From NCBI GenBank assembly GCA_030651905.1, contig JAUSBS010000082.1, positions 4,322-68,321 of the forward strand: a stretch of 64,000 bases of DNA, given 5' to 3'. The notes under the pieces are model-generated. The model was not told the origin of the DNA and searched no databases. It worked only from the letters and a program-made list of their open reading frames with translations. This document shows, in pieces, positions 20,662 to 53,563 of this stretch. Each line of letters opens with the position of its first letter. Positions within the stretch are counted from its first letter, which is position 1. The DNA is from Coriobacteriia bacterium. GTDB lineage: Bacteria; Actinomycetota; Coriobacteriia; Anaerosomatales; PALSA-660. Both the position numbers and the translations under genes were made by a program.

Positions 20662-20995
20662 CGGAGCCTCCCCCCACGCGGACGGAGACCCCGTTGGGGA
20701 CGCACACGAGAGCCGCACCGGCGGCGCAGACCTGTCCCTGATGGACGCACAGCCGGTCCGGACACGGCGCATCGAGCACACTGACCGCACCATCGCGCAC
20801 CCTCAGTGTGAGTGGACCGCGGGCACCCTCGATCTCCAGCGTCCGATCGGGGCGCAGAGCGATCTGAGACGTGCCCCCCGGTCCGGTCACGACCGCCACG
20901 TCCGCCCGGCCCGCGGCAGCGAGATACGTGGCCGGCCACGCGAGCGCAGCCAGCGCCAGTACCCCCGCCACCACGAGCCGATCGCCGCGTGTCAC
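20636..20995 (-). CDS. NusG domain II-containing (DUF1312) small membrane-anchored protein
   Basis: It starts at GTG 20995 (GTGA overlap with the rnfB stop) and has an N-terminal TM. The sequence DAPCPDRLCVHQGQV...ALVCVPNGVSVRV matches the NusG_II family that usually pairs with the Gx transporter. Confidence 0.7.
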   Translation of the reverse strand: MTRGDRLVVAGVLALAALAWPATYLAAAGRADVAVVTGPGGTSQIALRPDRTLEIEGARGPLTLRVRDGAVSVLDAPCPDRLCVHQGQVCAAGAALVCVPNGVSVRVGGGSDALDAVIR

Positions 20996-21906: not shown

Positions 21907-21920
21907 TCGCGCCTCCTCCC

Positions 21921-22541: not shown

Positions 22542-22542
22542 G

Positions 22543-24834: not shown

Positions 24835-24835
24835 C

Positions 24836-26237: not shown

Positions 26238-27500
26238 CTAGTGCACCGCGCAGGACATGCACGGGTCGTACGCGCGAACGAGCTGCTCGATGAGCAGGAT
26301 GAACTCGTCGCGGGGACGGTCGGCGATCGTCGGAGCGAACGCGCGCATATCCGCGTCCAGGTTCGCCAGGTTCTGGGCTGTCGGCGTGATGACGTCGCCG
26401 CGCGTGATGAACCCGTCGTCATCGATCCCGTAGCCGTGGTACAGCGTCCCGCGAGGCGCCTCGGTCGCACCGGCGCCCTCGCCCGCTTGGATCTTGAACG
26501 GCACCGGCGCCGACGAGCCGCCCATCTCGAGCAGGCGTCCGATGTAGCCGGCGCAGCGCTCGGCGGCGTCGACGAGTTCGACGGCCTGTGCCAGATGCGT
26601 GTGGAACGGGTTGCGCGAGGGCATGGTGAGCCCGGCCTTTGCGAGAGCGTCCCGTCCCGCGGCGCTGAGCGAACCGGCGTTGATGTTGAGCCGCGGGAGC
26701 GCGCCCACGATGATCGGCATGCCCGCCACCATGGTGTGCTTCGCGTTGCTGTGCCCGACGATCGACTCGGTGATGACCTCGCGGTAGTCGGAGACCGGCC
26801 GCCTCCATCCGGCGTCGAGAGCGGCGATCTCGCCCTCGTAGATGGCGTAGTCGTCCGTCGAGGACAGCGCCAGCATCTCGCCGGCGGTGTCGAACGCGGG
26901 CACCTCGAAGGACGCGAACAACTCGACGGTCGAGACCGCGTCGGGCGCGATGTCGAGCAGCATCTCGCGGAACGCCTCGAGCTTGCGGGGATCGGGTTCG
27001 GCCGTGAAGCCGCCGATCACCGCGGTCACGGGGTGGACTGATCGTCCGCCCACGAGGTTGCACAGCTCGTTGCCGAGCTTCTTGATCTTGAGCGCGCGCG
27101 CGACGATGTCGGGGTGCGTGGCGGCCAGCGGGAAGACGCTCGGCAGCCCGACGAAGTCCGGCGCGGCGAACACGTACAAGTGCGTCGCGTGGTTCTGCAG
27201 GTACGAGCCGTACACGAGCAGTTTGCGCAGCAGCTTCGTGCGCTCCGAGACCTCCACGCCCAGCGCGGACTCGATCGCCTTGATCGAGGTGACCGCGTGG
27301 TTGGGCGAACAGATCCCGCAGATGCGGCTGGTGATGAGCGGCGCCTCGTCGAACCTGCGTCCGACCACCATGGACTCGAAGAAGCGGGCGGGCTCGACGA
27401 CGTCCATACGGATCGAGGAGACGACGCCGTTCTCGACAGAGACGGAGATGTTGCCGTGGCCCTCGATACGCGCCACGTGCTCGACAGTCAGGTCAGCCAT
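26238..27500 (-). CDS. hydA: group 3b [NiFe] hydrogenase large (alpha) subunit
   Basis: The N-terminal RICGICSPNH and the C-terminal DPCMSCAVH (ending at His) are present. At 420 aa it is group-3 sized, and the neighbouring genes define the 3b type. Confidence 0.9.
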   Translation of the reverse strand: MADLTVEHVARIEGHGNISVSVENGVVSSIRMDVVEPARFFESMVVGRRFDEAPLITSRICGICSPNHAVTSIKAIESALGVEVSERTKLLRKLLVYGSYLQNHATHLYVFAAPDFVGLPSVFPLAATHPDIVARALKIKKLGNELCNLVGGRSVHPVTAVIGGFTAEPDPRKLEAFREMLLDIAPDAVSTVELFASFEVPAFDTAGEMLALSSTDDYAIYEGEIAALDAGWRRPVSDYREVITESIVGHSNAKHTMVAGMPIIVGALPRLNINAGSLSAAGRDALAKAGLTMPSRNPFHTHLAQAVELVDAAERCAGYIGRLLEMGGSSAPVPFKIQAGEGAGATEAPRGTLYHGYGIDDDGFITRGDVITPTAQNLANLDADMRAFAPTIADRPRDEFILLIEQLVRAYDPCMSCAVH

Positions 27501-27501
27501 C

Positions 27502-28245
27502 TTACGCAGTCACCTCCGCGGCGGTGTTGTAGACGAGTAGCGACGACGCGAGTGATGCCGGGTCGCAGCCGTACCGGGCGAACACCTCACGAGCAGAGGC
27601 GAGATTGGCATCGGGCGCGATGCCGCGACAGCCGGTGCACGGGCGGCCGAGCGAGGGACACTTCGCTTTGCAGCCTGCGCGCGTCACGAGTCCGAGGCAC
27701 ACGGTCCCGACCTCGAGGAAGCAGGCGTTCTCCGAGACCTTGCACGACGCGCACATCATCTGGTCCGGCATGTGGTCGGACAGGCCCTGCAGGACGCGGG
27801 AGAGACCTCGAAGGAACTCCGCCGTGTCGATGGGGCAGCCCGGTACGTGGTAGTCCACGTCGATGATCGAGTCGATCGGCGCGGGCGCGATGCGGCCCGG
27901 AGCCACGGCCACGCCGCCTCCGTAGACCGTCGCGTAGCGCGTCTCGAGGCCGGCGGTGTTGGCCAGCGCCGGGATGCCACCGGTCACGGCGCAGGTGCCG
28001 ATCGCGACGACGGCGGCCGCCTTCGAGCGAACGTCCTTGAGAAGCTCGACGTGTTCGGTGGTGGTGACGGCGCCTTCGATGATGGCGACATCGTACGCGT
28101 CCGGCATGTGACCGCTGCTGGCGAGTTGCCAGTAGGTCAGATCCATCAACCCGAGGACGTCGAGCAGGTCGTCCTCCATGTTCGTGAGCTGCACCTGGCA
28201 CCCGAAATCGGAAGCGAGGGACACGACGACGACTCGCGGTGCCAT
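27502..28245 (-). CDS. hydD: group 3b hydrogenase small (delta) subunit
   Basis: It is an NuoB/20 kDa-like small subunit with SLASDFGCQVQL and HVPGCP, plus C-terminal extra Cys motifs. Confidence 0.88.
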   Translation of the reverse strand: MAPRVVVVSLASDFGCQVQLTNMEDDLLDVLGLMDLTYWQLASSGHMPDAYDVAIIEGAVTTTEHVELLKDVRSKAAAVVAIGTCAVTGGIPALANTAGLETRYATVYGGGVAVAPGRIAPAPIDSIIDVDYHVPGCPIDTAEFLRGLSRVLQGLSDHMPDQMMCASCKVSENACFLEVGTVCLGLVTRAGCKAKCPSLGRPCTGCRGIAPDANLASAREVFARYGCDPASLASSLLVYNTAAEVTA

Positions 28246-29124
28246 CTAGATCGCCTCCTGCAGGTTCATGGCTTCCCAGTAGTTGAAGACCGGGCCGTCC
28301 ACGCATGCGTACTGGTGGCCGACACCGCAGTGTCCGCACTTTCCGATCCCGCACTTCATGCGGCGCTCGAAACTCACGTAGATGCGATCGACGTCCATGG
28401 CCTTCTTGCGCATCTCCGCGATCACGTACTTGTACATGACGGGCGGGCCACAGATGGCTCCGTAGGTGTTCTCGGGGTCCACGTCGATCTTGTCGAACAG
28501 CCTTGTGACGAGGCCGACCTCGCCCTCCCACGTGTCGTCAGGCTGGTCGACGGTGAGCATCAGATCGAAGTCGTCACGGTGCTGCCACATGTCGAACTGG
28601 TAGCGGAACAACACCTCGTCGGGCTTCTTCGCGCCGTAGAGGATGGTCACCTTGCCGAAATCGTGGCGATCGTCATGGATGTGGTTGATGAGGCTCTTGA
28701 GCGGCGCGATGCCGAGGCCGCCAGCCACCAGGAGTACGTCGTGACCCTTCATCTCCTCGAACGGGAAGCCGCGGCCGAACGGGCCGCGAAGCCCGACGAT
28801 GTCGCCGCACTGCTTACGGTGGAGCGCACCGGTCACGTCGCCGGCGTTGCGCACGCACAGCTCGATGAAGCCCTGCTTCGACGGGGCGCTCGAGATCGAG
28901 ATGGGCGCCTCGCCCACACCGAACACCGATAGCTCGACGAACTGGCCGGCCGAGAAGTCGAAGGCTTCGCGAGCATCCGAATCGATGAGCCGCAGTTCGA
29001 AGAGCTTCTCCTGCGGTGTCAGGTCCATGATCGAGGTGATGCGCGCCGGCCAGGGACGGTACGGGTTCACGGTGCTCTCGGGAACGGCGCCGCTCACGTG
29101 AGTGCCTCGCATGATCGTGTCCAT
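28246..29124 (-). CDS. hydG: group 3b hydrogenase gamma subunit (FAD/NAD(P)-binding, 2Fe-2S)
   Basis: It has a ferredoxin-NADP-reductase-like fold (VLLVAGGLGIAP) and the C-terminal CGIGKCGHCGVGHQYACVDGP. Confidence 0.88.
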   Translation of the reverse strand: MDTIMRGTHVSGAVPESTVNPYRPWPARITSIMDLTPQEKLFELRLIDSDAREAFDFSAGQFVELSVFGVGEAPISISSAPSKQGFIELCVRNAGDVTGALHRKQCGDIVGLRGPFGRGFPFEEMKGHDVLLVAGGLGIAPLKSLINHIHDDRHDFGKVTILYGAKKPDEVLFRYQFDMWQHRDDFDLMLTVDQPDDTWEGEVGLVTRLFDKIDVDPENTYGAICGPPVMYKYVIAEMRKKAMDVDRIYVSFERRMKCGIGKCGHCGVGHQYACVDGPVFNYWEAMNLQEAI

Positions 29125-30147
29125 CTAGTCCACCACACCTGTCTGCAGCGCCTCGACGACCCGGACGGGGTTGATGTTCGCCTTGCATGCGCGTGCGCAG
29201 CGGCCGCAGCCGACGCACAGCACACGCTCGAACTTGCTCAGGTACCCCCACTGCTTGTGGTAGTAGCGGTATTTCACTCGGCTGGCGCGCGTGTCGCGGA
29301 AGTTCTGCCCGTGCGCGACGGCCGCGAACTCCTTGAACTGGCAGCTGTCCCAGGTGCGGACCCGTCGCCCGTGCTGCTGGTCCGCCTCGAGTTCGTCGTG
29401 CACGTCGAAGCAGTAGCAGGTCGGGCACACCATCGAGCAGGCGCCGCATGCCAGACACTTCTCGCCGAACGCCTCCCAGATCGGGCTGTCGAACTTCGCG
29501 TCGAGCAGCAGTGGGAGCTGGGAGGTGTCCACATCGTTGCTGAACGCGGCCTTGAACGCGGCGGTGCGCTCCTGGAAGAGGCGCGTGTCCTCGTCCGTGA
29601 TGTCGCGTGACTCGACATGGCGATCGACGAGCTCAGCGCCCTTCACCGAGCGGATCGAGGCGAAGTAGCTGTCCCCGATGTCGGAGAGGAAGATGTCGAA
29701 GCCCCAGTGTGTCTCGTCCGTGCCCCAGGCGTTGCAGAAGCAGGTGTCCGATGGCGTGCACGAGACGCCCACGATCAGCGTGTTCTCGCGGCGCGCCCTG
29801 TAGTACGGGTCCACGTACTTCCCGAAGAAGACGTTGTCCATGAGCAGCAGGCTGTTCACGTCACAGGGGTGCAGTCCGAACAACACCCTCGGCGGCGCGT
29901 AGACCTCATCGTCCACGACCTCGTTGTCGGCCACGCGGAAGCGCATGATCGTCTCTTCGGGGGGGAAGAACCACTTCTTCGGCGGCAGGACCGTCGTGTC
30001 GTAGTCGAGCCGCAACGAAGCCGGATCCTCGATGGGCGCGAGCACGAACTTCTCGCCCTTCGCAACGGGGCCGACCACCTCGAACTCGGTGGACAGCCCG
30101 CGGACCAGGTCCGGCAGCCGGTCCTTGGCTATGACTCGGAAGAACAA
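29125..30147 (-). CDS. hydB: group 3b hydrogenase beta subunit (4Fe-4S)
   Basis: Both CLACGACSMVCPTCYCFD and CVGCGRCARACKANINP are present. The gene order beta-gamma-delta-alpha matches Pyrococcus-type sulfhydrogenase. Confidence 0.88.
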   Translation of the reverse strand: MFFRVIAKDRLPDLVRGLSTEFEVVGPVAKGEKFVLAPIEDPASLRLDYDTTVLPPKKWFFPPEETIMRFRVADNEVVDDEVYAPPRVLFGLHPCDVNSLLLMDNVFFGKYVDPYYRARRENTLIVGVSCTPSDTCFCNAWGTDETHWGFDIFLSDIGDSYFASIRSVKGAELVDRHVESRDITDEDTRLFQERTAAFKAAFSNDVDTSQLPLLLDAKFDSPIWEAFGEKCLACGACSMVCPTCYCFDVHDELEADQQHGRRVRTWDSCQFKEFAAVAHGQNFRDTRASRVKYRYYHKQWGYLSKFERVLCVGCGRCARACKANINPVRVVEALQTGVVD

Positions 30148-35882: not shown

Positions 35883-35958
35883 TGGTGCCCTGTGCAGGAC
35901 TCGAACCTGCGACCTTCTGCTCCGGAGGCAGACGCTCTATCCGCTGGGCTAACAGGGC
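35883..35958 (-). tRNA. tRNA-Arg (anticodon CCG), CCA encoded
   Basis: The minus-strand sequence is GCCCTGTTAGCCCAGCGGATAGAGCGTCTGCCTCCGGAGCAGAAGGTCGCAGGTTCGAGTCCTGCACAGGGCACCA. It folds as a cloverleaf with anticodon loop CTCCGGA and T-loop GGTTCGAGTCC. Confidence 0.93.
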
Positions 35959-37754: not shown

Positions 37755-37781
37755 CGCGGCGCACCGGACCGGCGTCGAGAC

Positions 37782-37821
37782 ACAAGAAGGGCCGACCCCC
37801 ACGGGGACCGGCCCTTCTTGT
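37782..37821. terminator. bidirectional terminator hairpin (plsY / ferredoxin)
   Basis: ACAAGAAGGGCCG...CGGCCCTTCTTGT forms a 13 bp stem. Confidence 0.6.
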
Positions 37822-37847: not shown

Positions 37848-38024
37848 CTACTTGAGCTCGATCGCCTCGTTCGGGCAGACCTCCTGGCAGGTGCCGCACT
37901 CGGAGCAGTCGTCCGGACGGGCCAGAACCGCCACGTCCCCGAGGTCGAGGGCGTTGGTCGGGCACTCGTCAACGCAGATGCCGCAGGCGGTGCACAGATC
38001 GGGATCGACGACAGGCTTGCCCAT
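37848..38024 (-). CDS. 2x[4Fe-4S] ferredoxin
   Basis: The motifs CTACGICVDECP and CSECGTCQEVCP are present. The start is set at MGKPVV after AAAGGA. Confidence 0.85.
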   Translation of the reverse strand: MGKPVVDPDLCTACGICVDECPTNALDLGDVAVLARPDDCSECGTCQEVCPNEAIELK

Positions 38025-38118
38025 TGATCTAGTTCCTTTCATTGGCGGTGATGCGCTCCGTGAAGCGGAGTGGTTCAGGATTCTAGCACCGGTGCGGCGC
38101 GATGTGCGACAGCGTCGC

Positions 38119-39684
38119 CTATCGAGCCTTGTCAGCCACCTCGGACGGACTCCAGTAGCAGAAGGGATACGTGCGGTCTGTCAGTATCTCGGAAGCCTCC
38201 CGCATCCGGAGGAGCTCGTCGAGTTCCTCTTGCAGCACCAGACGGTATGGCGCCATGAGATCGCCCAGCTCCTGGTTGACCTCGCGGATCCTTCGCCCGA
38301 GCGCCTTCTTGTCGGCGCCGGGAGACGCGATGGCTGCGATGAGGCGTGCCTTCTCGTCAGCCACTCCCTGCGCGCGACCCCGCTCGTCGGAGGAGTCGAA
38401 CTCGACCTGGTCGATCGCCTGGTCCGGGTTGTGGCGCATGCGATTGAGCGCCATCGAGGCGGCCTCGATGTCCGTGTCGGTGACGACCCGCGCCCCGAGA
38501 GGCAGGTACATCGTCATTGACGCCACGGCGAAGGTCGGGGGCTCGACGCCGAAGTAGCGGCGGATCACGTCGTCGGTGACGGAATCGTAGCGCCCGCCGC
38601 CGACGCCGTGGATGAAGAAGTCGGCGACGAACAGCCGTGCGAAGAGCGTCAGCATGAGCGCCTTCGGCGCCGGCACGAGCGATGACACGAACACGGTGTC
38701 GGGCGCGGACGCGCAATCGGCGAGCTCGCACAGCATCTCGCCGTCGACCACCAACGCAGGCACGTCTCCGGTCCGCGCCCATACAGTGCGCCGGGCACCA
38801 GCCAGATGCCACACCGGCAGCTCGATGAGATCCCCCTCGATACGCAGGTCGGGGAAGGGTTGGGCGGGGTTGCGCGTGCCGGTGCGGTCGCGGAAGTCGG
38901 CCAGCGCGTCGTTGTAGGCCGCCGCGAAGCCGACCGCGTCGCGTGCGATGTGCGCCAGCAGGGTCGCGAAGGCGCGCGAGCGGGCCATGGAGGTGACGGG
39001 CAACTCGAGGTAGTCCGTACTCGCGGAGGCCTCGTAGCGCCGCCGCGCGAACGTCACGAGTTCCGCGAGGTTGGCGGCGTCACCTGCCGCCGCCATCAGC
39101 TTCTCGCAGAACAGGGCGAAGTGATGACCAAGAGCGGGAGCGGGCAGTGAGGAGATTTGCTCCGCACCGGCCTCGCAGAACCGCTCGAGATCGGGCACCG
39201 AAGGGACCGGCGCGCATGCGAAGCATCCGTCGGTCGTTCCCACAGCGAGATAGGCGCGGCATACTCGGACCTCGGGTTTGAAACACGGCGAGTGGATCTC
39301 GACCGCGTCGAATCCGTCTGAGTCGACCACGAGGTCGATAGCAGCGGCGCCGATCTCGTCGGCGAGCCGTTGCAGCAGGAAGTCCTTGACCCACACGCCC
39401 GGGTGGTACAGCTCTGGCTGGTGACCCGTCATGACGATCATCCCGGGCTCGTGCGGCGTGTCGCGCACGGGGACGCCGAGCCGCGCGGAGAACTCGCCGG
39501 CGCGCGCGAGCGCCTCGCGTCGCGCGGAGTCCCTCAGCGCCGCGGCCGGCAGACCGCAGACGTCGAAGTCCCACCCCCGGACCGCGACCGCGTTGGCACG
39601 GGCGAGCCCCGCCCACTGCTCGTAGTCCGGACTCGTCAGCACCTCGCCGTGGCCGGCGGGCGTCGTGGTCTTGACGCTTGCCAC
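38119..39684 (-). CDS. hypothetical 521-aa soluble protein with distant BshC-like (bacillithiol cysteine-adding enzyme) features
   Basis: From my recollection of B. subtilis BshC there are three local resemblances. MTGHQPELYHPGVWVKDF resembles GGQQAGLLTGPLYTIHK. DLVVDSDGFDAVEI resembles FWVAGEDHDLDEINF. KALMLTLFARLFVADFFIHGVGGGRYD resembles RPLMQEFLIPTLAFIAGPGEINYW. The GTG start directly abuts the PIG-L stop. The family assignment is unverified. Confidence 0.45.
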   Translation of the reverse strand: MASVKTTTPAGHGEVLTSPDYEQWAGLARANAVAVRGWDFDVCGLPAAALRDSARREALARAGEFSARLGVPVRDTPHEPGMIVMTGHQPELYHPGVWVKDFLLQRLADEIGAAAIDLVVDSDGFDAVEIHSPCFKPEVRVCRAYLAVGTTDGCFACAPVPSVPDLERFCEAGAEQISSLPAPALGHHFALFCEKLMAAAGDAANLAELVTFARRRYEASASTDYLELPVTSMARSRAFATLLAHIARDAVGFAAAYNDALADFRDRTGTRNPAQPFPDLRIEGDLIELPVWHLAGARRTVWARTGDVPALVVDGEMLCELADCASAPDTVFVSSLVPAPKALMLTLFARLFVADFFIHGVGGGRYDSVTDDVIRRYFGVEPPTFAVASMTMYLPLGARVVTDTDIEAASMALNRMRHNPDQAIDQVEFDSSDERGRAQGVADEKARLIAAIASPGADKKALGRRIREVNQELGDLMAPYRLVLQEELDELLRMREASEILTDRTYPFCYWSPSEVADKAR

Positions 39685-40365
39685 CTAGAGCAGGTCCCTC
39701 ACGTCGCGCACTCCGATCTGCTCGCGGGCGTAGAACGGCTCGCCTGCGGCCGTGCCGATGAGCGCGCCCCACGATGCTGCCTGGACGCGGACCCACGGCA
39801 GGATGCCCACGTTGGCCTCGTTCGTCGTGAACTGCGATTCGTACGCGGCCAGCGCGACCATCTTCGCGTCGAGGTCCTCGGAGACGTCCACGATGAAGGA
39901 CGGCCTCTCGACGATCCGCAGGTGGACCGCCCAGTAGTGGTAGAGCCTCGCCGGATAGTGCGGCTCGCCGGCCATGTCCGTCTTGACGAACTTGGCGTAG
40001 AAGCGGGCCGCCTCGATGATGGCCGACGCCGCGATGTGGTCGGGGTGCGCGTCGATCGGATACGGTGCGAAGACGATGCGAGGCCTCTCGGCGCGCAGCA
40101 CCTCGGCCACCTTCTTGCGCGCCTCCACGGTGTCGAACAGCTCGCGGTTCGGCAGATCGAGCGTGAGACGACGAGCGCCGAGGGCAACGGCTGATGTCGC
40201 GGCTTCGACCATGCGAGTCTCATGAGTACCGCGCGGGGTCGGCTCCCCGTCGGTGAGGTCGACGATGAGCACGTCGAGGCCGCACCGAGCCAGTTTCGCC
40301 GCAGTGGCGCCCATCCCGATCTCGACATCGTCGGGGTGCGCGCCGAAGCAGATCACGTCAGCCAT
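39685..40365 (-). CDS. PIG-L/LmbE-family N-acetylglucosaminyl deacetylase
   Basis: The start is set at MADVICFGAHPDDVEIGMG. The zinc motifs AHPDD and HPDH are present. Confidence 0.88.
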   Translation of the reverse strand: MADVICFGAHPDDVEIGMGATAAKLARCGLDVLIVDLTDGEPTPRGTHETRMVEAATSAVALGARRLTLDLPNRELFDTVEARKKVAEVLRAERPRIVFAPYPIDAHPDHIAASAIIEAARFYAKFVKTDMAGEPHYPARLYHYWAVHLRIVERPSFIVDVSEDLDAKMVALAAYESQFTTNEANVGILPWVRVQAASWGALIGTAAGEPFYAREQIGVRDVRDLL

Positions 40366-40372
40366 CTCGTCG

Positions 40373-41113
40373 TCAGCCCTTCGCTCCGGTCGGATCCTCG
40401 GCCAAAGTACGCTCCCAGACCGCCATGTAGTAGGCGAACCGTCGCTCCGCATCGTCCAGGTCCTGTCCGAATGAGCGATCGTGGTCGTTGTAGATCCGCT
40501 CGACCGGCATCTCACACACAGTGAGCCCCGCGGCCCACGCCCGCGCCCAGAACTCGAGCGGCATGGCGTAGCCGGGCTCGTCGATCTGCACGCGGTTCAA
40601 GGCATCCGCCTTGTACGCCTTGAACCCGCAGAACGAGTCGGTGAGGTTCCAGCCGGTCACGCCATTGACGACCTCGGTCACCCGCCGGTTCACCGCCTGC
40701 CGATCGCTCGGCACCAGGCCGACCGCGCCGGATCCCGGCAGGTAGCGGCTCCCGGACACGATGTCGGCGCCGCACGTGGTGAGCTCCTCGCAGAACTGCA
40801 CGATGTGGGAAGGCTCGTGCTGGCCGTCGCAGTCCATCGTGATGATCGACTCCGCACCGAGTTCGAGCGCCGCGGCGAAGCCGCTTCGCAGTGACGCACC
40901 GTAGCCCTGGTTCTGCTCATGGCGCACGAGCAGCACATCGCTGCGCGCGGACGCGATCTGCGCCGTGCCGTCCGTCGAACCGTCGTCCACGACGACGACC
41001 CAGCCGTCGTACCGCTCGCGCACCGCATCGAGCACCCACCCGATGGTGGACGCCTCATCGAACACCGGCATGACGACGCAGGTACGCGCCGTGCACGGTG
41101 ACTTCGCCTTCAC
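40373..41113 (-). CDS. family 2 glycosyltransferase (DPM1-like, no TM segment)
   Basis: The sequences VVMPVFDEASTI, VVVDDGSTDGT, ITMDCDGQHEP and SGSRY are typical. The GTG start overlaps the OsmC stop (GTGA). Confidence 0.85.
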   Translation of the reverse strand: MKAKSPCTARTCVVMPVFDEASTIGWVLDAVRERYDGWVVVVDDGSTDGTAQIASARSDVLLVRHEQNQGYGASLRSGFAAALELGAESIITMDCDGQHEPSHIVQFCEELTTCGADIVSGSRYLPGSGAVGLVPSDRQAVNRRVTEVVNGVTGWNLTDSFCGFKAYKADALNRVQIDEPGYAMPLEFWARAWAAGLTVCEMPVERIYNDHDRSFGQDLDDAERRFAYYMAVWERTLAEDPTGAKG

Positions 41114-41562
41114 TCCCCCGCCGCCTCGGCGGGTGTCGATGCGGCATCGACCACGCGGAAGCTCGTCGTCACTCGCACCTGAGGACCGAACATGCCCTTC
41201 ACCGCGCAGTACTTGTCCTCGGAGAGCTCTATCGCGCGCGCTACGGCCGCCTCGGTCACACCTGGACCGCTGACGATGTAGGAGATGTCGATGTCCTCAT
41301 AGTGGTGCGGATAGTCGTCCTCGCGCTGGGTCCCGTTCACGACGATCTCGAGGCTCGACGCCGGCATGCGCTTCTTCTCCAGCACCGACACGATGTCCAT
41401 CGCGGTGCAGGCCGCCAGGCCATAGAGCACCAGTTCGACAGGCCTGGGGCCTGTCCCTTCGCCCTTGTTCTCAGGCCGTGCATCCATGACGATGCCGTGC
41501 CCGTAGGCGTCCCATCCCACGAACTGACGGTTGCCCGCCCATCGCACGCGAACGGTGTCCAT
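41110..41562 (-). CDS. OsmC/Ohr-family peroxiredoxin-like protein
   Basis: The start is set at MDTVRVRW. VELVLYGLAACTAMDIVSVLEK and KYCAVKGM carry the two OsmC cysteines. Confidence 0.85.
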   Translation of the reverse strand: MDTVRVRWAGNRQFVGWDAYGHGIVMDARPENKGEGTGPRPVELVLYGLAACTAMDIVSVLEKKRMPASSLEIVVNGTQREDDYPHHYEDIDISYIVSGPGVTEAAVARAIELSEDKYCAVKGMFGPQVRVTTSFRVVDAASTPAEAAGE

Positions 41563-41732
41563 CGGATCCTCTCGTCCTTTGTGGTCGCACACAGCTGCGC
41601 GCCGAGGTCGTGCCCGTACCCCCGGTGCGGTGTCACTCCATTATGCCCAAGCGAAGGCGCCCCGGCCGCAATGGGCACGGAGCGCCTCGACGGTGCTGCG
41701 CGAAGCCACGGTCCGACCGGCGTGGAGGGGGT

Positions 41733-43331
41733 CTAGAGCTTCCGGCCGAGCATGGCAGCCAGCTCGCGCGGCTCCTTCGCCTTCGCGATGGCTTCCTCGT
41801 ACGTGATCTTGCCGCCCTGGAGCAGCGTCTTGAGATGCTGGTCGAGTGTCTGCATGCCGAGCTGGGCGCCGCCTTGGATGATGGTCGCCATCTGGTGCGT
41901 CTTACCCTCCCGGATGAGGTTGGAGATGGCCGGGATGCCGAGCATGATCTCCATGGCGAGGACCCGGCTCTTCCCGTCGGTGCTGCGCAGCAGGACCTGC
42001 GAGAGGACACCTTCGAGCGTGCCCGACAGCTGCATGCGGACCTGCTGCTGCTGGTGTGGCGGAAAGACGTCGATGACGCGGTCGATGGTCTCCGGACCGC
42101 CCGTGGTGTGCAGGGTGGCGAAGACTAGGTGGCCGGTCTCGGCCGCCGTGATGGCCGCGGAGATCGTCTCCAGGTCGCGCATCTCGCCGACGAGGATGAC
42201 ATCGGGGTCCTGACGAAGGACGCGCTTGAGTGCCGACGCGAACGAATGGGTGTCCTCGCCCACCTCGCGCTGGTTCACATACGCCTTCTTGTTCTTGTGC
42301 ATGAACTCGATGGGGTCCTCCATCGTGATGATGTGGACCGCACGCGTCTCGTTGATGTGGTCGACCATCGCCGCCAGCGTGGTCGACTTTCCCGACCCGG
42401 TCGGACCCGTTACGAGCACGAGCCCGCGAGGCCGCTCCGCAAGGTACTTGCAGACCTTCGGCAAGTTGAGGTCGGCCATGCTCGGGATGCGCAGGGGGAT
42501 GACACGGAAGACCGCGCCCATCGAGTTGCGCTGCTGCAAGACGTTGGCGCGGAACCGGGAGAGCCCGGGGATGCTGTAGGCGAAGTCCAGTTCCAGCTCG
42601 ACCTCGAAGCGCTTGCGCTGCTCCTCCGAGAGCATGGACAGGATCATCTCCTGCGTGTCCTTCGGCGAGAGTGGGCGCATACCCTCGATCGGCAGGAGCT
42701 CACCGCGCTGACGGACGCCCGGAGGGCTCCCTACGTTGATGTGCAGGTCGGAGCCGCCGCGGTCGATCATCAGCCGGAGAAGGTCGTCGATATGCGGGAC
42801 GCCGCTGGAGCTCGCCTTCGGCGCGCTCACGGGCCTCGACTCGCCCGCAGCCGACACCGGTTGCGGTGCGCCGTAGGAGGCTGCCTGCACCGGCTGCGGC
42901 GCACCATAGTCCGCGGTAGCCGCCGCTGCCGCCTCCGGCGAGGTCGACGATGCTGTGACAGCGACTCCGGCGAGGACGCGCACCTTGTCGAGCAGGACCC
43001 CGAGGTCGACGGACTCGGGCAGATGCGCCGATGCTCCGGACTGACGCGCCTTGAGCGACGTCGACTCGGACGGCTCGTCCGCAAGAATGATGACCGGCAC
43101 GTTCGCCAACTCGGGGTCCGCCTTGAGCTGTTGCGTCAGTGCGTAGCCGTCGAGCCCGACCATATCGCCGTCGACGATGATCACGTCCGGCTTGCGCTGC
43201 TGCGCCATACCGATCGCCCGTGGACCGGAGATCGCGGCGAACACCTCGAAGCCCGGCTCGTCGGCCTGGAAACGGCTCTGGATCCTCTCGAACAGGGCGG
43301 CGTCCTCGTTGACCACAAGTATCTTCGCCAC
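41733..43331 (-). CDS. pilT: PilT-type type IV pilus retraction ATPase fused to an N-terminal receiver-like domain
   Basis: The GTG start at 43331 follows GGGAGGGGA. The REC-like part reads KILVVNEDAA...DVIIVDGDM. It is followed by a Pro/Ala linker with a repeated SYGAPQPV. The PilT core has GPTGSGKST, DVILVGEMRD, HLVFATLHT and AISNLIREGK. Confidence 0.88.
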   Translation of the reverse strand: MAKILVVNEDAALFERIQSRFQADEPGFEVFAAISGPRAIGMAQQRKPDVIIVDGDMVGLDGYALTQQLKADPELANVPVIILADEPSESTSLKARQSGASAHLPESVDLGVLLDKVRVLAGVAVTASSTSPEAAAAATADYGAPQPVQAASYGAPQPVSAAGESRPVSAPKASSSGVPHIDDLLRLMIDRGGSDLHINVGSPPGVRQRGELLPIEGMRPLSPKDTQEMILSMLSEEQRKRFEVELELDFAYSIPGLSRFRANVLQQRNSMGAVFRVIPLRIPSMADLNLPKVCKYLAERPRGLVLVTGPTGSGKSTTLAAMVDHINETRAVHIITMEDPIEFMHKNKKAYVNQREVGEDTHSFASALKRVLRQDPDVILVGEMRDLETISAAITAAETGHLVFATLHTTGGPETIDRVIDVFPPHQQQQVRMQLSGTLEGVLSQVLLRSTDGKSRVLAMEIMLGIPAISNLIREGKTHQMATIIQGGAQLGMQTLDQHLKTLLQGGKITYEEAIAKAKEPRELAAMLGRKL

Positions 43332-43455
43332 TACCCGCGTCCCCTCCCGATGTCCATACGAAGCGGGCCGCTTCGACGTACACAATCGCCGGCGCGACCC
43401 GTTGAGTCCCCTCTGAAGGTATATCGGCACCGGCGGCACGAACTGAACCACCGAT

Positions 43456-43472
43456 TGTGACGCCACGTCACA
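43456..43472. promoter_or_regulatory. perfect palindrome TGTGACG-CCA-CGTCACA (CRP/FNR-like half sites, 7-nt spacer)
   Basis: The palindrome was read directly. It lies in the divergent pilT / methyltransferase intergenic region. Confidence 0.3.
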
Positions 43473-45323: not shown

Positions 45324-45710
45324 TCAGCCCCGACCGAGCTTCGCCAGGAAGTTGAGGATCTTGACGAGTGCGCCGCCCACCATCGGGATGGCCGCGATCG
45401 TCATCCATCCGCCGCCCTCGCCGCTTCCGACGCCCTTCATGACCTCGCCGAAATCGACCCGCACCGGCGATGCCACGCCGTTGATCTCGAGTGTCACGGT
45501 GGCTCCGGTGCTACCCAGCTGCACGCCCTTGACCTGGCCGGCGAGTTGGCTGGCTACCTGGCCCGCGGTGACCGTGGTGACCGTGCGCCCCGTGGCCTGT
45601 GCCCCGAAGGCGGCTGCCGGCGCACACAGCGCGACCATCATGGCTCCGAGGAGGGCCACCCTGATCAGCCTGTCCGGCACAGCACACCTCCGACGACGCG
45701 CCCACAACAT
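45324..45710 (-). CDS. hypothetical secreted/membrane-anchored small protein
   Basis: It has a signal-like N-terminus (LLGAMMVALCAPAAAFGAQA), a Gly-rich segment and a C-terminal hydrophobic helix. I recognise no family, and the start is uncertain. Confidence 0.45.
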   Translation of the reverse strand: MLWARRRRCAVPDRLIRVALLGAMMVALCAPAAAFGAQATGRTVTTVTAGQVASQLAGQVKGVQLGSTGATVTLEINGVASPVRVDFGEVMKGVGSGEGGGWMTIAAIPMVGGALVKILNFLAKLGRG

Positions 45711-45955
45711 CTCGCTGTCTGTATCGACACAGCGATGCCGCGTGAATGTGACACATATCACGACAAGCGGTCGGTTCCGATGGGCGGAGCCTTTTGTCGC
45801 CCAATGGATACCGTTCGGGGTGTCGCTCATCACATTGTGTGCTCAGATGCTACCGTGCGCTCGGAAGACGACCCGCGCCGGACCGCGGACAGAAGCGTCA
45901 GCGTCCGCCGACCGGCGGACGCGGGTTTCGAGCGTGTCTCGGGCGGGTGGGCGGG

Positions 45956-47812: not shown

Positions 47813-48503
47813 ACCTCGGCGCACCCCCTCTCCCGAACCGAGACCGTACTCATCCGCACCGGCAGCGTGGACGATCGGCCTTCTGGCGCGACGTGATCGA
47901 CTCGTCGCGATCCGACACATAACGCTTACCACTTGTTCGTCGCCGAGAACCATAGTCCTGCCGCGAGGCGCGCGCGTCCACCGCGCATCGGTCGCATGGC
48001 GACACCGACCGCGTCGACGCACCGCCATACGGTGGAGCTCGTGCTCCGTTGGGTATTGTCTGTGCAGCGTCGAAGCCGCAGACTGGTGAGCGTGTTTACT
48101 GGCGGCTCCGGATTGCATAAGGAATGCGGGGGAACGTGCGCCATCAGGACTGTCGTCGCGAGGGGCATGACCGGCGCGACGGCGCGAAGCGGGCCACCAC
48201 CGTTCGTCACATCGTGACGGCCGGTCCTTGAACGACCTCGCGGGCAGGTCTGCCCGCACAGCGCGCCATCCCGGCGCGAATCCCTGTCGTCGAGTCTCGG
48301 CACATGCCGTCCCTCCGCCACCAACCGGCGCGAGCGGGCGGCGTTCTCATGCCGTGGCACTAGAGGTCTACACGTTTCGTAGGGAGGTGCGAAAGGAGGA
48401 GGCCGGACTATGTTGGGGAGGCCCCCCGCCTCGGAACAGGCGGCAGGGGTCGGGATGCATGTGACATGTGTCTTTCCTGTAAGCACGCAAGGAGGTGTAT
48501 GGG

Positions 48504-49643
48504 ATGGCGCAAGAAATGCGAGAAGGGATCTACGATCTCCTCGCAGCGCGGGGCGTTTCGCGCCGTGATTTCCTGAAGTACTGCGGTTCTGTCGCAGCGA
48601 TGCTCGGACTCTCCGAGATGGCTGCACCGCAGATCGCTGCGGCCGTCGAGGGTGGAGCCAAGCTCCAGCCGGCCGTGTGGCTCGATCTGGGCCTGTGCAC
48701 GGGATGCACGGAGTCGACCGCGCAGGCCGGCAACCCCAACGTTGCCGACATCGTGCTCGACCTGCTCTCCATCAACTACATGGAGACGATCATGGCCGCC
48801 GCCGGCGACCAGGCCGAAGAGGCCAAGGCCAAGACGATAGAAGAGGGCGGCTACATCCTCATCGTCGAGGGCACCGTCATGACGGGCGAAGGCGGCAACA
48901 CACTGCGCATCGCCGGCAAGACGGGCATGGAAGTCCTGAAGGAGGCCGCCTCCAAGGCGGCAGCCATCGTGGCTGTCGGTTCCTGCGCTGTTGACGGCGG
49001 CTGGGTGCGGGCCAACCCGAACCCCGCCGGCGGCAAGGGCGTCAAGGACGTCGCTGTGGAGCTCGGTTTCGACAAGGTGCCGATCATCAACCTGCCGACC
49101 TGCCCGGTGAACCCGGAGTGGATCGTCGCAGTGGTGATCGACGTCCTGATGCTCGGCGCGCTCGAGAACCTCGCGGTGCTCAACCTGGACGAGCTTGGCC
49201 GACCGAAGCTGATCTTCGGCCAGACGATCCACGATAACTGCCCGCGTCGCGGTCACTTCGAGAACGGCGAGTTCGTCAAGCAGTTCGGCACGGTCGAGGA
49301 AGTCAAGCAGTTCTGCCTCTACGAGGTCGGCTGCAAAGGCCCCCAGACGTTCACGAACTGCCCGAAGGTCCGCTGGAACCGCAAGGCCTCCTGGTGTGTC
49401 GAGTCCGGAGCGCCCTGCATCGGTTGCGGCAATCTCAACTGGGTCGACAACGACGCTCCGTTCCTCAAGAGGATGCCGAACGTCGGCGGCGTGCGTCCCG
49501 AGACGATCGGGACGGTGCTCGGCGGTGCCGCAGCGGCCGGTCTCCTCGTCCACGGCGTCGCATCGTTCTCCTCCGGCCGCGCCAAGGGCGCTCCGGTCGA
49601 GACGTCGAAGGCCTACGACAAGAAGAAGGGAGGCGATAAGTAG
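48504..49643 (+). CDS. group 1 [NiFe(Se)] hydrogenase small subunit, Tat-exported, C-terminal TM anchor
   Basis: The start is set at the ATG 9 nt after AAGGAGG. The Tat motif SRRDFLKYCG and the proximal cluster motif CTGCTES are present. The medial-cluster region reads NCPKVRWNRKASWCVESGAPCIGC. The C-terminal helix is TVLGGAAAAGLLVHGVASF. Confidence 0.92.
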   Translation: MAQEMREGIYDLLAARGVSRRDFLKYCGSVAAMLGLSEMAAPQIAAAVEGGAKLQPAVWLDLGLCTGCTESTAQAGNPNVADIVLDLLSINYMETIMAAAGDQAEEAKAKTIEEGGYILIVEGTVMTGEGGNTLRIAGKTGMEVLKEAASKAAAIVAVGSCAVDGGWVRANPNPAGGKGVKDVAVELGFDKVPIINLPTCPVNPEWIVAVVIDVLMLGALENLAVLNLDELGRPKLIFGQTIHDNCPRRGHFENGEFVKQFGTVEEVKQFCLYEVGCKGPQTFTNCPKVRWNRKASWCVESGAPCIGCGNLNWVDNDAPFLKRMPNVGGVRPETIGTVLGGAAAAGLLVHGVASFSSGRAKGAPVETSKAYDKKKGGDK

Positions 49644-51280
49644 TGGCCAGGGCAGTCATCGATCCCGTAACCAGAATCGAAGGACATCTCCGCGTCGAGG
49701 TTGAGGTTGAAGGCGGCGTCGTCAAGGACGCCTGGGTCAGCGGTACGCTGTACCGCGGCATGGAGACCGTCCTCGAGGGCCGTGCCCCCGCCGACGCCTT
49801 CTATGTCTCGCAGCGCATCTGCGGCGTGTGCCCGATCTCACACGGTCACGCCTCCACGATGGCAAGCGAAGCCGCGCTCGGGATCCAGATCCCGGACGGC
49901 GCGCGCCTCGTTCGCAACATCATCGAGGGTGCTGAGACCCTGCACAGCCACATCCTGTGGTTCTACACCCTGACGGCACTCGACTACGTCGACGTCGTCT
50001 CCGCGCTGTCCGCGAACATCGCTGACACGTACGCGTTGGCCGAGAAGGCCGGCACGTCGACCGCGGACTTCGGCCAGGTCCAGAAGCGCATCAAGACGTT
50101 CGTCGAGGGCGGTCAGCTCTCCATCTTCACGAACGGCTACTGGGGCCACCCGGCCATGAAGCTCCCGGCCGAGCTCAACCTGATCGCTGTCGCCCACTAC
50201 CTTGAGGCACTCGAGATGCAGGCCGAGGCCGCGCAGATCATCGCTCTCATGGGCGGCAAGTTCCCCCACTTCATGACCTCTCTCCCCGGCGGCACCGCAT
50301 GGATGCCCACAGAGGAGAAGCTCGGCGGGATCCTCTTCCGCTGGAAGCGCGTCCGCGACTGGGTCGCGAACACCTTCATCCCCGACACGCTGGCGATCGC
50401 CCCCTTCTACATCGAGGCGGCCACCTACGGTAAGGGTTGCGGGAACTTCCTGTCCTGGGGCTGCTTCGACGACGCCAGCTTCGATCCCAAGAAGCGCGCG
50501 CTGCCTCGCGGCATGATCGTAGGCGGCAAGCTCGAGGTCCTCGAGCCGGATGTCGCTCAGGTCAAGGAGTACGTGGAGCACGCATGGTACGACTCCCCCA
50601 GCGCGCTGAACCCGGCGCAGGGAAAGACCCACGCGAAGTTCACGTCATACGACACGAACGACAGGTACTCGTGGGTCAAGGCGCCTCGTCTCAACGAGCT
50701 GCCCATGGAGGTCGGACCTCTGTCCCGCATGCTCGTCGCCTATCTGGACGGCGTGCCGCAGGTCAAGAGCCTCATCGACACCACGCTGGCGGCGCTCGGC
50801 GTCGCAGGCAAGCCCGAGATCCTCGTGTCCCTGCTCGGTCGCATCGCGGCCCGCAACCTCGAGACGCTGTACGTGGCCGACGAGATGGGCAAGTGGATCG
50901 GCGAACTGGTCGCGGCCGTCAAGGGCGGCGAGGCGAAGTTCTTCACTGAGTCCACCGCCACCGATGGTGAGGGTGCTGGACTCTGGGAGGCCCCGCGCGG
51001 TGCGCTCGGCCACTTCATCTCCGTGAAGGGCGGCAAGATCGCGAACTACCAGGCGGTCACTCCGTCCACATGGGACCTGTCGCCGCGTGACGCCGCAGGC
51101 GTTCGCGGTCCGATGGAAGAGGCACTCATCGGCGCTCCGATCGCGGACGTCGAGAAGCCTCTCGAGGCCCTGCGTATCGTCCACTCCTTCGATCCTTGAG
51201 TGGGTTGCGGGGTTCAGGTCATTGAACCCAAGACCGGCAAGTCGTCGTTCGTGATGTCGAAGCCCACGATGGGCAGGTGA
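49643..51280 (+). CDS. group 1 [NiFeSe] hydrogenase large subunit; UGA at 51197-51199 read as selenocysteine
   Basis: The N-terminal RICGVCPISH motif is present. The track ORF stops at ...RIVHSFDP-TGA. The same frame continues VGCGVQVIEPKTGKSSFVMSKPTMGR-TGA (51278-51280), which gives DP-U-VG-C. A SECIS-like hairpin follows, and the second stop overlaps the GTG of the cytochrome b gene. Confidence 0.75.
51210..51229 (+). other. putative bacterial SECIS hairpin
   Basis: GGGTTCA-GGTCAT-TGAACCC forms a 7 bp stem with a 6-nt loop containing GGUC. It starts 10 nt after the UGA. Confidence 0.55.
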
Positions 51281-51945
51281 GTGCAATGTCGCACGAGGGA
51301 CACTATCGTGAGGCGCACCCGCTGATCTTCGTGTTCCAGCACTGGGTCAATCTCATCTGCATGGCGGGGCTCGCGTTCTCGGGCTTCGTCATCCACGGCT
51401 CGTTCTACGCCATCTCCATGGGCGGAGCTCGGATGATCCACTTCACGCTGATGTTCGTGCTCGCTGTGAACATCACGAGCCGCATCATCCTGTCCTTCTG
51501 GGTCAAGGATGCCAACCAGCTCGGCACGCGCGAGGTAGACACCGACATCAAGAACTGGCTGCCGCAGAAGGAGAACAAGCACCAGCTGCTCGAGACCGCG
51601 AAGTACTACCTGTTCATGCGGAAAGAGCGAGTCATCTCGGCCAAGTACGGTGCCCTGCAGAAGATCGCGTACCTTGCCACCGTGCCCATCACGTTCTTCA
51701 TGGGCTACACCGGCTTCGCGCTCTACGGCCCTGCTCAGCAGTGGCCGGTGTGGGGCTTCTTCGCCGGAGGCATCAGCCTCGTCGGCGGCATCATGACCAT
51801 GAGGATCATCCACTACTTCGGTATGTGGGTCGTCATCCTGTTCACCATGGTGCATGCGTACCTGGCTGCGATCGACGGCTTCAAGGCGTTCTACGGCCTC
51901 ATCTTCCTGTGGCGTGAGTCGCCCGGGGCCGAGGAAGGTCACTAG
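51277..51945 (+). CDS. Ni/Fe-hydrogenase b-type cytochrome subunit
   Basis: This four-TM cytochrome b has His residues in helices (FQHWVNL, RMIHFTLMFV, MRIIHYFGMW, TMVHAYL). ATG 51286 is an alternative start. Confidence 0.85.
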   Translation: MSAMSHEGHYREAHPLIFVFQHWVNLICMAGLAFSGFVIHGSFYAISMGGARMIHFTLMFVLAVNITSRIILSFWVKDANQLGTREVDTDIKNWLPQKENKHQLLETAKYYLFMRKERVISAKYGALQKIAYLATVPITFFMGYTGFALYGPAQQWPVWGFFAGGISLVGGIMTMRIIHYFGMWVVILFTMVHAYLAAIDGFKAFYGLIFLWRESPGAEEGH

Positions 51946-51994
51946 TCGCTCTTCATCGAGCCGGCCGTCGAACGTACGGCGGACGCGCAATGCG

Positions 51995-52024
51995 GAGGCC
52001 CGGGGCACAAGCGCCCCGGGCCTC
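51995..52024 (+). terminator. GC-rich hairpin after the cytochrome b gene
   Basis: The hairpin reads GAGGCCCGGGGC-acaa-GCGCCCCGGGCCTC. Confidence 0.55.
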
Positions 52025-52152
52025 TCGCTTCGCGAGCGACGACCCGCGGGGCAGGACTGACGGCGTTCCCGTCGAATACACGGGGTGACACGCACGGCCC
52101 CGCAGGGCCTGAAGCGAGCACCACCTCGGCCGCCGTCTGGAGATGCCCACGT

Positions 52153-53475: not shown

Positions 53476-53563
53476 GCGCGAGCACGTTCGTGCGCGCCCG
53501 GGTGCGCTACAATCCGACGCTGACCCGTCTCGTCCCACTCACGACACCCGGAGGCTTCCACTG

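Follow-up and report, generated by a model that had tools for sequence, protein, structure and literature searches.

A glycosyltransferase, BshB1-type deacetylase and BshC-like cassette conserved across phyla: a candidate pathway to an unrecognised low-molecular-weight thiol

The low-molecular-weight thiols glutathione, mycothiol and bacillithiol set the redox state of the cytoplasm, detoxify electrophiles and antibiotics and traffic metals. Mycothiol and bacillithiol share a cysteinyl-glucosamine (Cys-GlcN) backbone and differ in the aglycone (Newton and Rawat, PMC6336425), and for the Planctomycetes, Verrucomicrobia and Spirochaetes no low-molecular-weight thiol is documented or predicted (PMC6282198). 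The locus described here is a five-gene operon within a 64 kb window (the whole stretch of DNA that was analysed) from the metagenome-assembled genome (MAG) of an uncultured Coriobacteriia bacterium. At its centre lies a cassette of three genes, for a family 2 glycosyltransferase (GT2), a zinc-dependent de-N-acetylase of the PIG-L/LmbE fold and a soluble 521-residue protein that resembles the bacillithiol enzyme BshC, and the question it raises is what such a cassette would make. The answer favoured here, which is given an even chance of being right, is that the cassette follows the logic of the BshABC pathway and leads to a beta-linked cysteinyl-hexosamine conjugate, Cys-HexN-X, as a new low-molecular-weight thiol. 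This product would differ from bacillithiol in its anomeric linkage, its aglycone or both. Full-text literature searches found no publication on the cassette, or on a BshC-like family outside canonical BshC.

The five genes all lie on the minus strand and are tightly packed. The first (41110..41562) encodes an OsmC-family protein of the YhfA subgroup, 150 residues long from an ATG that is preceded by the Shine-Dalgarno sequence GAGAGGA. Its TGA stop codon (41112-41110) overlaps the GTG start codon (41113-41111) of the GT2 gene, giving GTGA at 41113-41110. The GT2 gene (40373..41113) encodes 246 residues with no transmembrane segment, and its TGA is separated by the seven-nucleotide spacer cgacgag from the ATG, at 40365, of the 226-residue de-N-acetylase (39685..40365). 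The TAG of the latter (39687-39685) directly abuts the GTG (39684) of the 521-residue BshC-like open reading frame (ORF; 38119..39684). After a gap of 94 nucleotides, with the ribosome-binding site GAAAGGAA, the ATG at 38024 opens the last gene of the operon (37848..38024), encoding a 58-residue 2x[4Fe-4S] ferredoxin with the motifs CTACGICVDECP and CSECGTCQEVCP. The layout was taken from the ORF list and the junctions were read directly; the coordinates and junctions reported in an earlier note on this DNA proved exact, and the public NCBI annotation of the MAG has the same gene boundaries, with the ferredoxin also called as 58 residues. Pfam recognises the OsmC protein (PF02566, 5.6e-17), the glycosyltransferase (PF00535, 3.9e-23), the PIG-L enzyme (PF02585, 2.6e-23) and, in two stretches, the ferredoxin (Fer4, 6.6e-17). 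The five genes form one operon.

In the proposed pathway, the soluble GT2 would use a metal site formed by D94-C-D96 and Q98 to transfer an N-acetylhexosamine (HexNAc), most likely N-acetylglucosamine (GlcNAc), from the uridine diphosphate (UDP) sugar to an anionic acceptor, X, which would be held by Arg123 and Arg138, giving beta-HexNAc-X. The BshB1-type zinc deacetylase would then remove the N-acetyl group to yield the hexosamine conjugate HexN-X. Finally, the BshC-like enzyme, in which the HIGH-like and KMSKS-like positions would be filled by invariant motifs, would attach an amino acid, taken by analogy to be L-cysteine, to the freed 2-amino group by acylation, generating Cys-HexN-X. Within the Actinomycetota the cassette would be co-transcribed with the OsmC/YhfA-type protein and the ferredoxin, and it may be speculated that redox or peroxide defence is what the product serves in this lineage. 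These assignments of donor sugar, acceptor, added amino acid and redox role are all putative.

The enzyme of the third step is the least familiar of the three. It is 100% identical to the NCBI entry 'hypothetical protein Q7W16_06495 [Coriobacteriia bacterium]', and as a single sequence it finds no match in Pfam, NCBIfam or the PDB, the BshC models included at E <= 0.1. It nevertheless belongs to a large family, with more than 850 close homologues that are all named 'hypothetical' and, by exhaustive hidden Markov model (HMM) search, at least 3,561 representatives when clustered at 50% identity, of which 1,709 fall below 1e-30, all of the family being unannotated and occurring in at least 584 GTDB species. 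An AlphaFold2 model built from the family alignment (predicted local distance difference test score, pLDDT, 90.1; predicted template-modelling score, pTM, 0.83) has a Rossmann core of the class I aminoacyl-tRNA synthetase (aaRS) type, inserted beta subdomains and a C-terminal coiled coil (helices 403-501). When this model was compared with the PDB by Foldseek, the best match was Bacillus subtilis BshC (4WBD), over the full length (E 1.4e-10, TM-scores 0.53/0.51, 523 columns), followed by class I LysRS (1.5e-4) and then TyrRS and TrpRS. These are the fold neighbours to be expected of a BshC. Identity to 4WBD in the fold alignment is 12%. A 28-member family profile searched against the PDB with hmmsearch found only de novo helical bundles, aligned with the last 100 residues, which marks the coiled coil and nothing more.

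The family is defined by a set of invariant motifs that are kept in all groups of genomic context, namely TGHQPxLxHPGxWxK (86-100), DxD (121-123), E288-x-P-x-W292, RP(K/R)A...T346...R350, (F/V)HGxGGxxYD (358-367) and R504. The earlier note had seen three local resemblances to B. subtilis BshC. With a BshC sequence checked against 4WBD, and a BshC profile of 20 sequences, a near-global hhalign alignment brings all three into register (GHQP..K with GGQQ..K, DxD with DHD, and FIHGxGGxxY with FIAGPGExxY) and adds a fourth, RP, pair. Thus TGHQPxLxHPGxWxK100 falls on BshC GGQQAGLLTGPLYTIHK105, D121-x-D123 on D134-H-D136, R-P (339-340) on R334-P335 and FIHGxGGxxYD on FIAGPGEINYW. The four pairs are collinear, the residues differ and the significance is marginal (E ~0.05), but the positions in common are the invariant ones in each family. 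The alignment score of 25.1 compares with a mean of 18.3 (standard deviation 2.8) for block-shuffled controls, one of 40 shuffles reaching 25.1. The first motif comes immediately behind strand beta-1 in the model, where the first Rossmann helix begins, and thereby appears to occupy the position of the HIGH signature of class I synthetases. By its modelled fold and its motifs, the 521-residue protein is a remote homologue of BshC that stands outside the currently defined BshC family.

The deacetylase is much closer to a characterised enzyme. It scores 195.6 bits on the NCBIfam BshB1 equivalog model TIGR04001 (cutoff 182.5) and far lower on BshB2, MshB and Mca. The order of glycosyltransferase, deacetylase and ligase that had been likened in the earlier note to bacillithiol and mycothiol synthesis is as described, with a BshB1-like second enzyme. 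Cassette deacetylases from three phyla pass the same cutoff, including those of Nitrospinota (190.0 bits) and Carboxydochorda (191.6 bits). The nearest PDB sequences are B. subtilis BshB1 (6P2T, 3e-36), Bacillus cereus BC1534 (2IXD) and Thermus TT1542; the nearest solved relatives are hence three BshB enzymes from bacillithiol-producing lineages, all with a soluble small-molecule substrate, which argues for the thiol pathway. The window enzyme has H10, D12, D13, R51, H107, D109 and H110, and in BC1534 numbering the zinc ligands His12/Asp15/His113, the catalytic residues Asp14/His110/Asp112 and Arg53 are kept in 61 of 61 cassette-linked enzymes.

One residue sets the cassette enzymes apart. The roles of the active-site residues have been reviewed for the LmbE superfamily, where docking and mutagenesis tie Arg109 to the binding of GlcNAc-malate (PMC4101496). 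This arginine is present in all three BshB structures (B. subtilis, B. cereus and Thermus), whereas at the same position the 61 cassette enzymes have alanine in 57 (Ala106 in the window), serine in three, threonine in one and arginine in none. Judged from its sequence, the cassette deacetylase resembles BshB1 but is consistently altered at a substrate contact, and the loss of Arg109 throughout suggests that the aglycone or the anomer differs from that of GlcNAc-alpha-malate. It also follows that the 'BshB1' label carried by cassette deacetylases across hundreds of genomes is probably over-specific, since the scores lie just 8-13 bits over the cutoff, Arg109 is missing and the neighbours are a GT2 and an unannotated protein rather than BshA and BshC.

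If that label were taken at face value, the cassette would make canonical bacillithiol, with BshA replaced by a GT2 that is not its orthologue and with a highly diverged BshC. The NCBI pipeline does name the window deacetylase 'bacillithiol biosynthesis deacetylase BshB1' (MDO8915715.1), and the third enzyme is BshC-like in fold. However, an inverting GT2 acting on UDP-alpha-GlcNAc yields the beta anomer, an established property of the family, and not the alpha-GlcNAc-malate that BshB and BshC use. Taken together with the loss of Arg109 from every cassette enzyme and the failure of any of the family members scanned to reach a BshC model, this makes the production of canonical bacillithiol very improbable.

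The glycosyltransferase has the PF00535 domain and, in an AlphaFold2 model (pLDDT 84.5), the GT-A fold; a test for a GT4 domain was negative, and no GT4 gene is conserved beside the cassette. As had been proposed before, it is an inverting-family, DPM1-like GT2 without a transmembrane segment that stands in place of the GT4 enzymes BshA and MshA. Its best NCBIfam relative is PpgS, a polyprenyl-phospho-GalNAc synthase, at 8e-31 but with 107 bits against a cutoff of 370, followed by dolichyl-phosphate hexose transferase, AglJ and ArnC (ArnC at 28.9 bits, cutoff 529). PpgS is also ranked first for the cassette GT2s of Nitrospinota and Carboxydochorda. Among PDB sequences the top match is Pyrococcus furiosus DPMS (5MLZ, 9e-10), then ArnC. 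Orthologues (E 1e-54 to 1e-128) are encoded directly upstream of a PIG-L or BshC-like gene in 66 loci, and D94-C-D96, Q98, R123 and R138 show at least 95% conservation in this set. With the residue roles established for the acceptor phosphate in P. furiosus DPMS (PMC5526996), Arg117 and Arg131 of that enzyme correspond to R123 and R138, whilst Ser135 corresponds to the conserved Asn142 and Lys178 to Ala183 at a variable position. The GT2 is predicted to be a UDP-HexNAc:acceptor beta-HexNAc transferase, and its acceptor is likely to be anionic, either a phosphate or a carboxylate, since the two arginines of the DPMS phosphate site are kept. A de-N-acetylase as the following enzyme fits this assignment, because PpgS, the best curated relative, transfers HexNAc.

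These relationships also bear on the main rival explanation, which is a lipid-linked route. Here the GT2 would make polyprenyl-phosphate-beta-HexNAc at the inner face of the membrane, the PIG-L enzyme would deacetylate it and the BshC-like enzyme would N-acylate it with an amino acid, after which enzymes encoded elsewhere would flip the product and transfer it to an envelope polymer. All of the best curated or solved relatives of the GT2 (PpgS, DPMS, ArnC, AglJ and GtrB) are polyprenyl- or dolichyl-phosphate glycosyltransferases, both phosphate-site arginines are retained across the 66 cassette enzymes, and a helix matching interface helix 1 of DPMS is present. The protein may bind the membrane peripherally via amphipathic helices. 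Moreover, without the BshB Arg109 the deacetylase has one contact fewer for a dicarboxylate aglycone, and the founding PIG-L enzyme itself acts on lipid-linked GlcNAc. Set against this, the GT2 stops at the end of its 246-residue GT-A catalytic domain, with neither a transmembrane segment nor a small membrane partner, no membrane protein, flippase or GT-C enzyme is a conserved neighbour in 82 loci, two DPMS residues are replaced (Ser135 by Asn, Lys178 by Ala) and the PpgS score falls far short of its cutoff. The deacetylase, which is above the BshB1 cutoff, is nearest to enzymes with soluble substrates, and we know of no precedent for the cytoplasmic aminoacylation of a polyprenyl-phosphate aminosugar by a class-I-aaRS-like enzyme. 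The fold of the GT2 is about equally near to ArnC, DPMS, GtrB and the soluble small-molecule enzyme GpgS (TMq 0.62-0.69), which makes a soluble acceptor plausible; for the same reason the structure was dropped as a judge between lipid and soluble acceptors. On this balance the lipid-linked route is considered unlikely.

Whether the cassette is a real unit was addressed by searching the five window proteins against six-frame ORFs of 81 related loci (designated below by L numbers), giving with the window 82 loci, 30 from Actinomycetota and 52 from other phyla. The GT2, PIG-L and BshC-like genes are adjacent, collinear and on the same strand in 30 of 30 Actinomycetota loci, in which the identity of the BshC-like protein to that of the window falls as low as 42%. 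Each of the 30 also has the ferredoxin gene 3' of the BshC-like gene, which no locus from another phylum does. The OsmC gene, likewise found in Actinomycetota only, is upstream in all 29 other loci of this phylum except L010, the contig of which is cut off at the GT2. Beyond the Actinomycetota, the adjacent triad recurs in 31 of the 52 loci, spread over five or more further named phyla or classes and MAGs labelled only 'bacterium'; its hosts include Armatimonadota, Nitrospinota, Atribacterota, Limnochordales and other Bacillota MAGs, Nitrospirae and several candidate lineages. In these triads the GT2 (E 1e-54 to 1e-69) and the PIG-L enzyme (1e-58 to 1e-74) are similar enough to be orthologues and not generic family members. 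Chance adjacency was therefore rejected, as five genes in the same order and on the same strand recur in 29 other species-level Actinomycetota loci and the inner three recur beyond. Six of the 52 loci, five labelled Planctomycetota and one unclassified, have the GT2 and BshC-like genes without PIG-L. Of the checks set out in the earlier note, the structural comparison with BshC and the test for conservation as a unit gave positive outcomes. The full triad is present in the complete genome of the cultured Carboxydochorda subterranea L945 (L082, CP141615.1, about 493.3-496.6 kb), and the cultured Limnochorda pilosa also carries the BshC-like family.

Several observations weigh against a thiol product, and the most serious concern the BshC link. 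At the level of sequence this link had to be rejected, having been sought with Pfam, NCBIfam, phmmer and hmmsearch against the PDB, and hhalign; a relationship to the BshC family that an HMM comparison could confirm, as the earlier note had envisaged, did not emerge. The models PF10079 and PF24850, both of which are carried by all retrieved true BshC proteins, and the NCBIfam BshC model match none of 39 diverse family members at E <= 1, and hhalign of the family against the single BshC sequence or the 20-sequence profile gives a probability of ~1% (E ~0.05). The 521-residue protein has no conserved zinc/cysteine-binding site of the MshC/CysRS type; the amino acid that it would add is not readable from sequence, and cysteine is proposed by analogy only. 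Even for BshC, in vitro reconstitution of the ligase activity has never been achieved (PMC4360819), and the basis of the analogy is therefore genetics in Bacillus. In addition, the closest sequence relatives of the GT2 (PpgS, DPMS, AglJ and ArnC) all use polyprenyl phosphate, with two of three DPMS acceptor-phosphate residues kept. The OsmC and ferredoxin genes are lineage-specific add-ons outside the conserved core. Finally, in 15 of the 52 non-Actinomycetota loci, from anammox bacteria (Scalindua, Brocadia) and other Planctomycetota and some Nitrospinota, the BshC-like gene has no other cassette gene within 8 kb.

Some of these points would equally suit a soluble HexN-X conjugate that is not a thiol, such as a compatible solute, a cofactor precursor or a signalling sugar, in which case the BshC-like enzyme would add another carboxylate or amino acid, or act on another substrate, and the linkage to OsmC and ferredoxin would be incidental or would serve other chemistry. 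The identity to BshC is just 12%, the chemistry of BshC is unresolved (PMC4360819), no cysteine-binding signature can be recognised in the BshC-like protein and the function of OsmC/YhfA proteins is unproven. Nor is a thiol-disulfide reductase, redoxin or S-transferase a conserved neighbour in the 82 loci. Yet the sole characterised enzymes with this fold and coiled coil are BshC proteins, the motif positions held in common are invariant in both families, and every known pathway in which a glycosyltransferase, a deacetylase of the BshB/MshB type and a class-I-aaRS-like ligase come together leads to a Cys-GlcN thiol. A non-thiol conjugate is thus regarded as rather improbable, and the thiol pathway remains the preferred reading.

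The wider gene neighbourhoods were compared by all-against-all clustering across the 82 loci. No accessory gene (disulfide reductase, redoxin, S-transferase, methyltransferase, cysteine synthesis, flippase or GT-C) is conserved across phyla, and only synteny within lineages was seen. A flavoprotein at L066 (Nitrospinota) was considered as a thiol-disulfide reductase and rejected, because it proved to be a standard dihydrolipoyl dehydrogenase (above the TIGR01350 cutoff with 474 bits) and occurs at that locus only. In Carboxydochorda (L082), genes for S-adenosylmethionine synthetase and S-adenosylhomocysteine hydrolase, of sulfur amino-acid and methyl-cycle metabolism, lie upstream of the cassette (1-2514), and a PNP_UDP_1 nucleosidase/phosphorylase gene lies just downstream (12063-12899). 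In the Atribacterota, a gene for a Na/Pi-cotransporter-PhoU fusion is found directly 5' of the GT2 gene (L062 852-2480; L067 4830-6440); in L062 the two genes share 4 nucleotides, where the fusion gene ends and the GT2 begins, which suggests co-transcription with the cassette. Haem and cytochrome maturation is a thiol-dependent process, and in five loci of Armatimonadota and unclassified origin (L034, L040, L060, L076 and L037) genes for CcmB, CcmE, CcmF, cytochrome b and ferrochelatase lie 2-5 kb from the cassette, an arrangement that is probably lineage synteny. At the anammox loci (L073, L064, L061, L054, L063 and L077) the BshC-like gene has no adjacent GT2 or PIG-L gene, Gln89 of the first motif is replaced by Glu or Ser, and the neighbours are unrelated (a BrxL-like Lon protease, MutS and a dCache protein). 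These anammox proteins may represent a functionally diverged branch.

In the Actinomycetota the cassette is accompanied by the OsmC-family protein, and the translational coupling of its gene to the GT2, together with the conservation of its cysteine pair, is in keeping with the thiol pathway. Of the earlier view that the operon is led by a thiol-dependent OsmC-type peroxidase, the leading OsmC-family gene and its two cysteines stand: C52 and C119, a pair of the catalytic type, are at least 95% conserved in 29 orthologues. The peroxidase activity stays putative, as the protein is YhfA-type and reaches neither the OsmC nor the Ohr subfamily cutoff. Its best NCBIfam model is PRK10738 (YhfA-type, 98.8 bits, cutoff 138), it scores 19.5 bits on TIGR03562 (OsmC, cutoff 85.8), and its closest PDB sequence is Escherichia coli YhfA (1ML8, 1.6e-23). 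To our knowledge, no peroxidase activity has been proven for YhfA-type proteins.

Elsewhere in the window lie genes for two [NiFe] hydrogenases and an Rnf complex, from which the host looks to be an anaerobe with ferredoxin-based metabolism; that the co-transcribed ferredoxin serves as an electron source is plausible in such a host but speculative. The complete Rnf-type cluster (20992-26140, minus strand) encodes an RnfB-like Fe-S protein, two Rnf-Nqr membrane subunits, an FMN_bind subunit, RnfD and RnfC. Adjoining it is a cluster (26238-30147, minus strand) for a Fer4_22 protein, an FAD/NAD-binding protein with a DHODB Fe-S domain, an Oxidored_q6 small subunit and a [NiFe] large subunit, which resembles a soluble group-3 (sulfhydrogenase-like) hydrogenase. 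The second [NiFe] hydrogenase (48495-54118, plus strand) is of the membrane-bound uptake type, with a small subunit that has NiFe_hyd_SSU_C, a large subunit, a cytochrome b561-type subunit and the HycI maturation protease; a radical-SAM gene sits within this cluster. Among the window ORFs scanned with Pfam (~45 of ~60, all larger ones included), no msh, bsh, gsh or egt gene was found.

The operon is bounded at its 3' end by an intrinsic-terminator-like element at about 37781..37819 (minus strand), a GC-rich hairpin GAAGGGCCG...CGGCCCTTC followed by the T-tract TTGTGT, which was read from the sequence and the inner part of which was also found by a terminator scan. At its 5' end, the 170-nucleotide intergenic region upstream of the OsmC gene (41563..41732, minus strand) is presumed to hold the promoter and leader; promoter and Rfam scans of this region found no sigma-70 consensus, riboswitch or other Rfam element. 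Just upstream (41733-43466, minus strand) is a gene for an ATPase of the PilT/T2SSE type with a response-regulator receiver domain fused at its N terminus and a low-complexity linker, a neighbour that is kept in the related 2.67-Mb contig L001. On the other side, a tRNA-Arg(CCG) gene (35883-35958, minus strand) lies between a flavin-reductase gene and the diacylglycerol (DAG)-kinase/PlsY pair that flanks the operon. The window also has three ORFs of high third-position GC content (GC3) without Pfam matches, of 408 residues (19420-20646, plus strand) and 255 residues (17018-17785, plus strand) at E <= 1e-8 and of 169 residues (45324-45833, minus strand) at E <= 1e-5.

The cassette provides a concrete, conserved three-gene candidate for phyla without a known thiol, and its presence in the cultured Carboxydochorda subterranea L945 and of the BshC-like family in Limnochorda pilosa makes the hypothesis directly testable. 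In its widest form, which is advanced tentatively and with a little less than even confidence, the hypothesis is that the cassette makes a widespread, unrecognised thiol as a third member of the Cys-GlcN class. Such a thiol would be beta-linked and would be the missing cytoplasmic redox buffer of the Planctomycetota including the anammox bacteria, the Nitrospinota, Armatimonadota, Atribacterota and Limnochordia and the non-mycothiol Actinomycetota such as environmental Coriobacteriia; in anaerobic Actinomycetota it would be linked to the OsmC-type protein and to a ferredoxin. The BshC-like proteins constitute a large new family remotely homologous to BshC, and, as the mechanism of BshC is unsolved, a second divergent family with common motifs could help to locate the true active site. 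The analysis also flags a systematic over-annotation, in that 'BshB1' is applied in genomes with different partner enzymes. Were the product to turn out lipid-linked or not a thiol, the N-acylation of a deacetylated hexosamine by a class-I-aaRS-like enzyme would still be new chemistry.

How, then, does the system compare with those already known? With E. coli YhfA and the OsmC/Ohr superfamily the operon OsmC protein has in common the fold family and two conserved cysteines, but its gene is translationally coupled to a sugar-conjugate pathway. The polyprenyl-phosphate glycosyltransferases (PpgS Rv3631, DPMS, ArnC with ArnD/ArnT, and GtrB) are the nearest relatives of the cassette GT2 and share with it the DXD...Q site and the two acceptor-phosphate arginines; the Arn route, moreover, also pairs a GT2 with a subsequent deacylase. 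Unlike those routes, the cassette has no transmembrane domain, membrane partner, flippase or GT-C, and it scores far under the family cutoffs. Its deacetylase is of the soluble-substrate BshB1 type instead of ArnD/CE4, and its BshC-like third step has no counterpart there.

The mycothiol pathway of the Actinomycetes (MshA/MshB/MshC/MshD) shares the Cys-GlcN logic, a PIG-L/LmbE-family deacetylase, a cysteine ligase derived from a class I aaRS and the phylum Actinomycetota. However, the cassette deacetylase reaches 32.7 bits on MshB against a cutoff of 224, and the third protein is BshC-like and not CysRS-like as MshC is, MshC and CysRS being absent from the 50 best fold matches listed. The cassette also lacks an MshD acetyltransferase and a GT4 of the MshA type. 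The closest parallel is the bacillithiol pathway, BshA/BshB1/BshC, of Bacillus, Staphylococcus, Deinococcus-Thermus and Chlorobi, in which a glycosyltransferase is likewise followed by a zinc de-N-acetylase and a class-I-aaRS-like enzyme with a coiled-coil tail. Nonetheless, the cassette glycosyltransferase is a GT2 of the GT-A fold and an inverting family, in contrast to the retaining GT4 BshA with its GT-B fold, the deacetylase is without Arg109, and the third enzyme is ~12% identical to BshC and is missed by the BshC models of Pfam and NCBIfam. In Bacillus bshC is unlinked, but here the three genes stand in one cassette, and the range of this cassette extends over the Coriobacteriia and other Actinomycetota, Armatimonadota, Nitrospinota, Atribacterota, Limnochordia and Planctomycetota.

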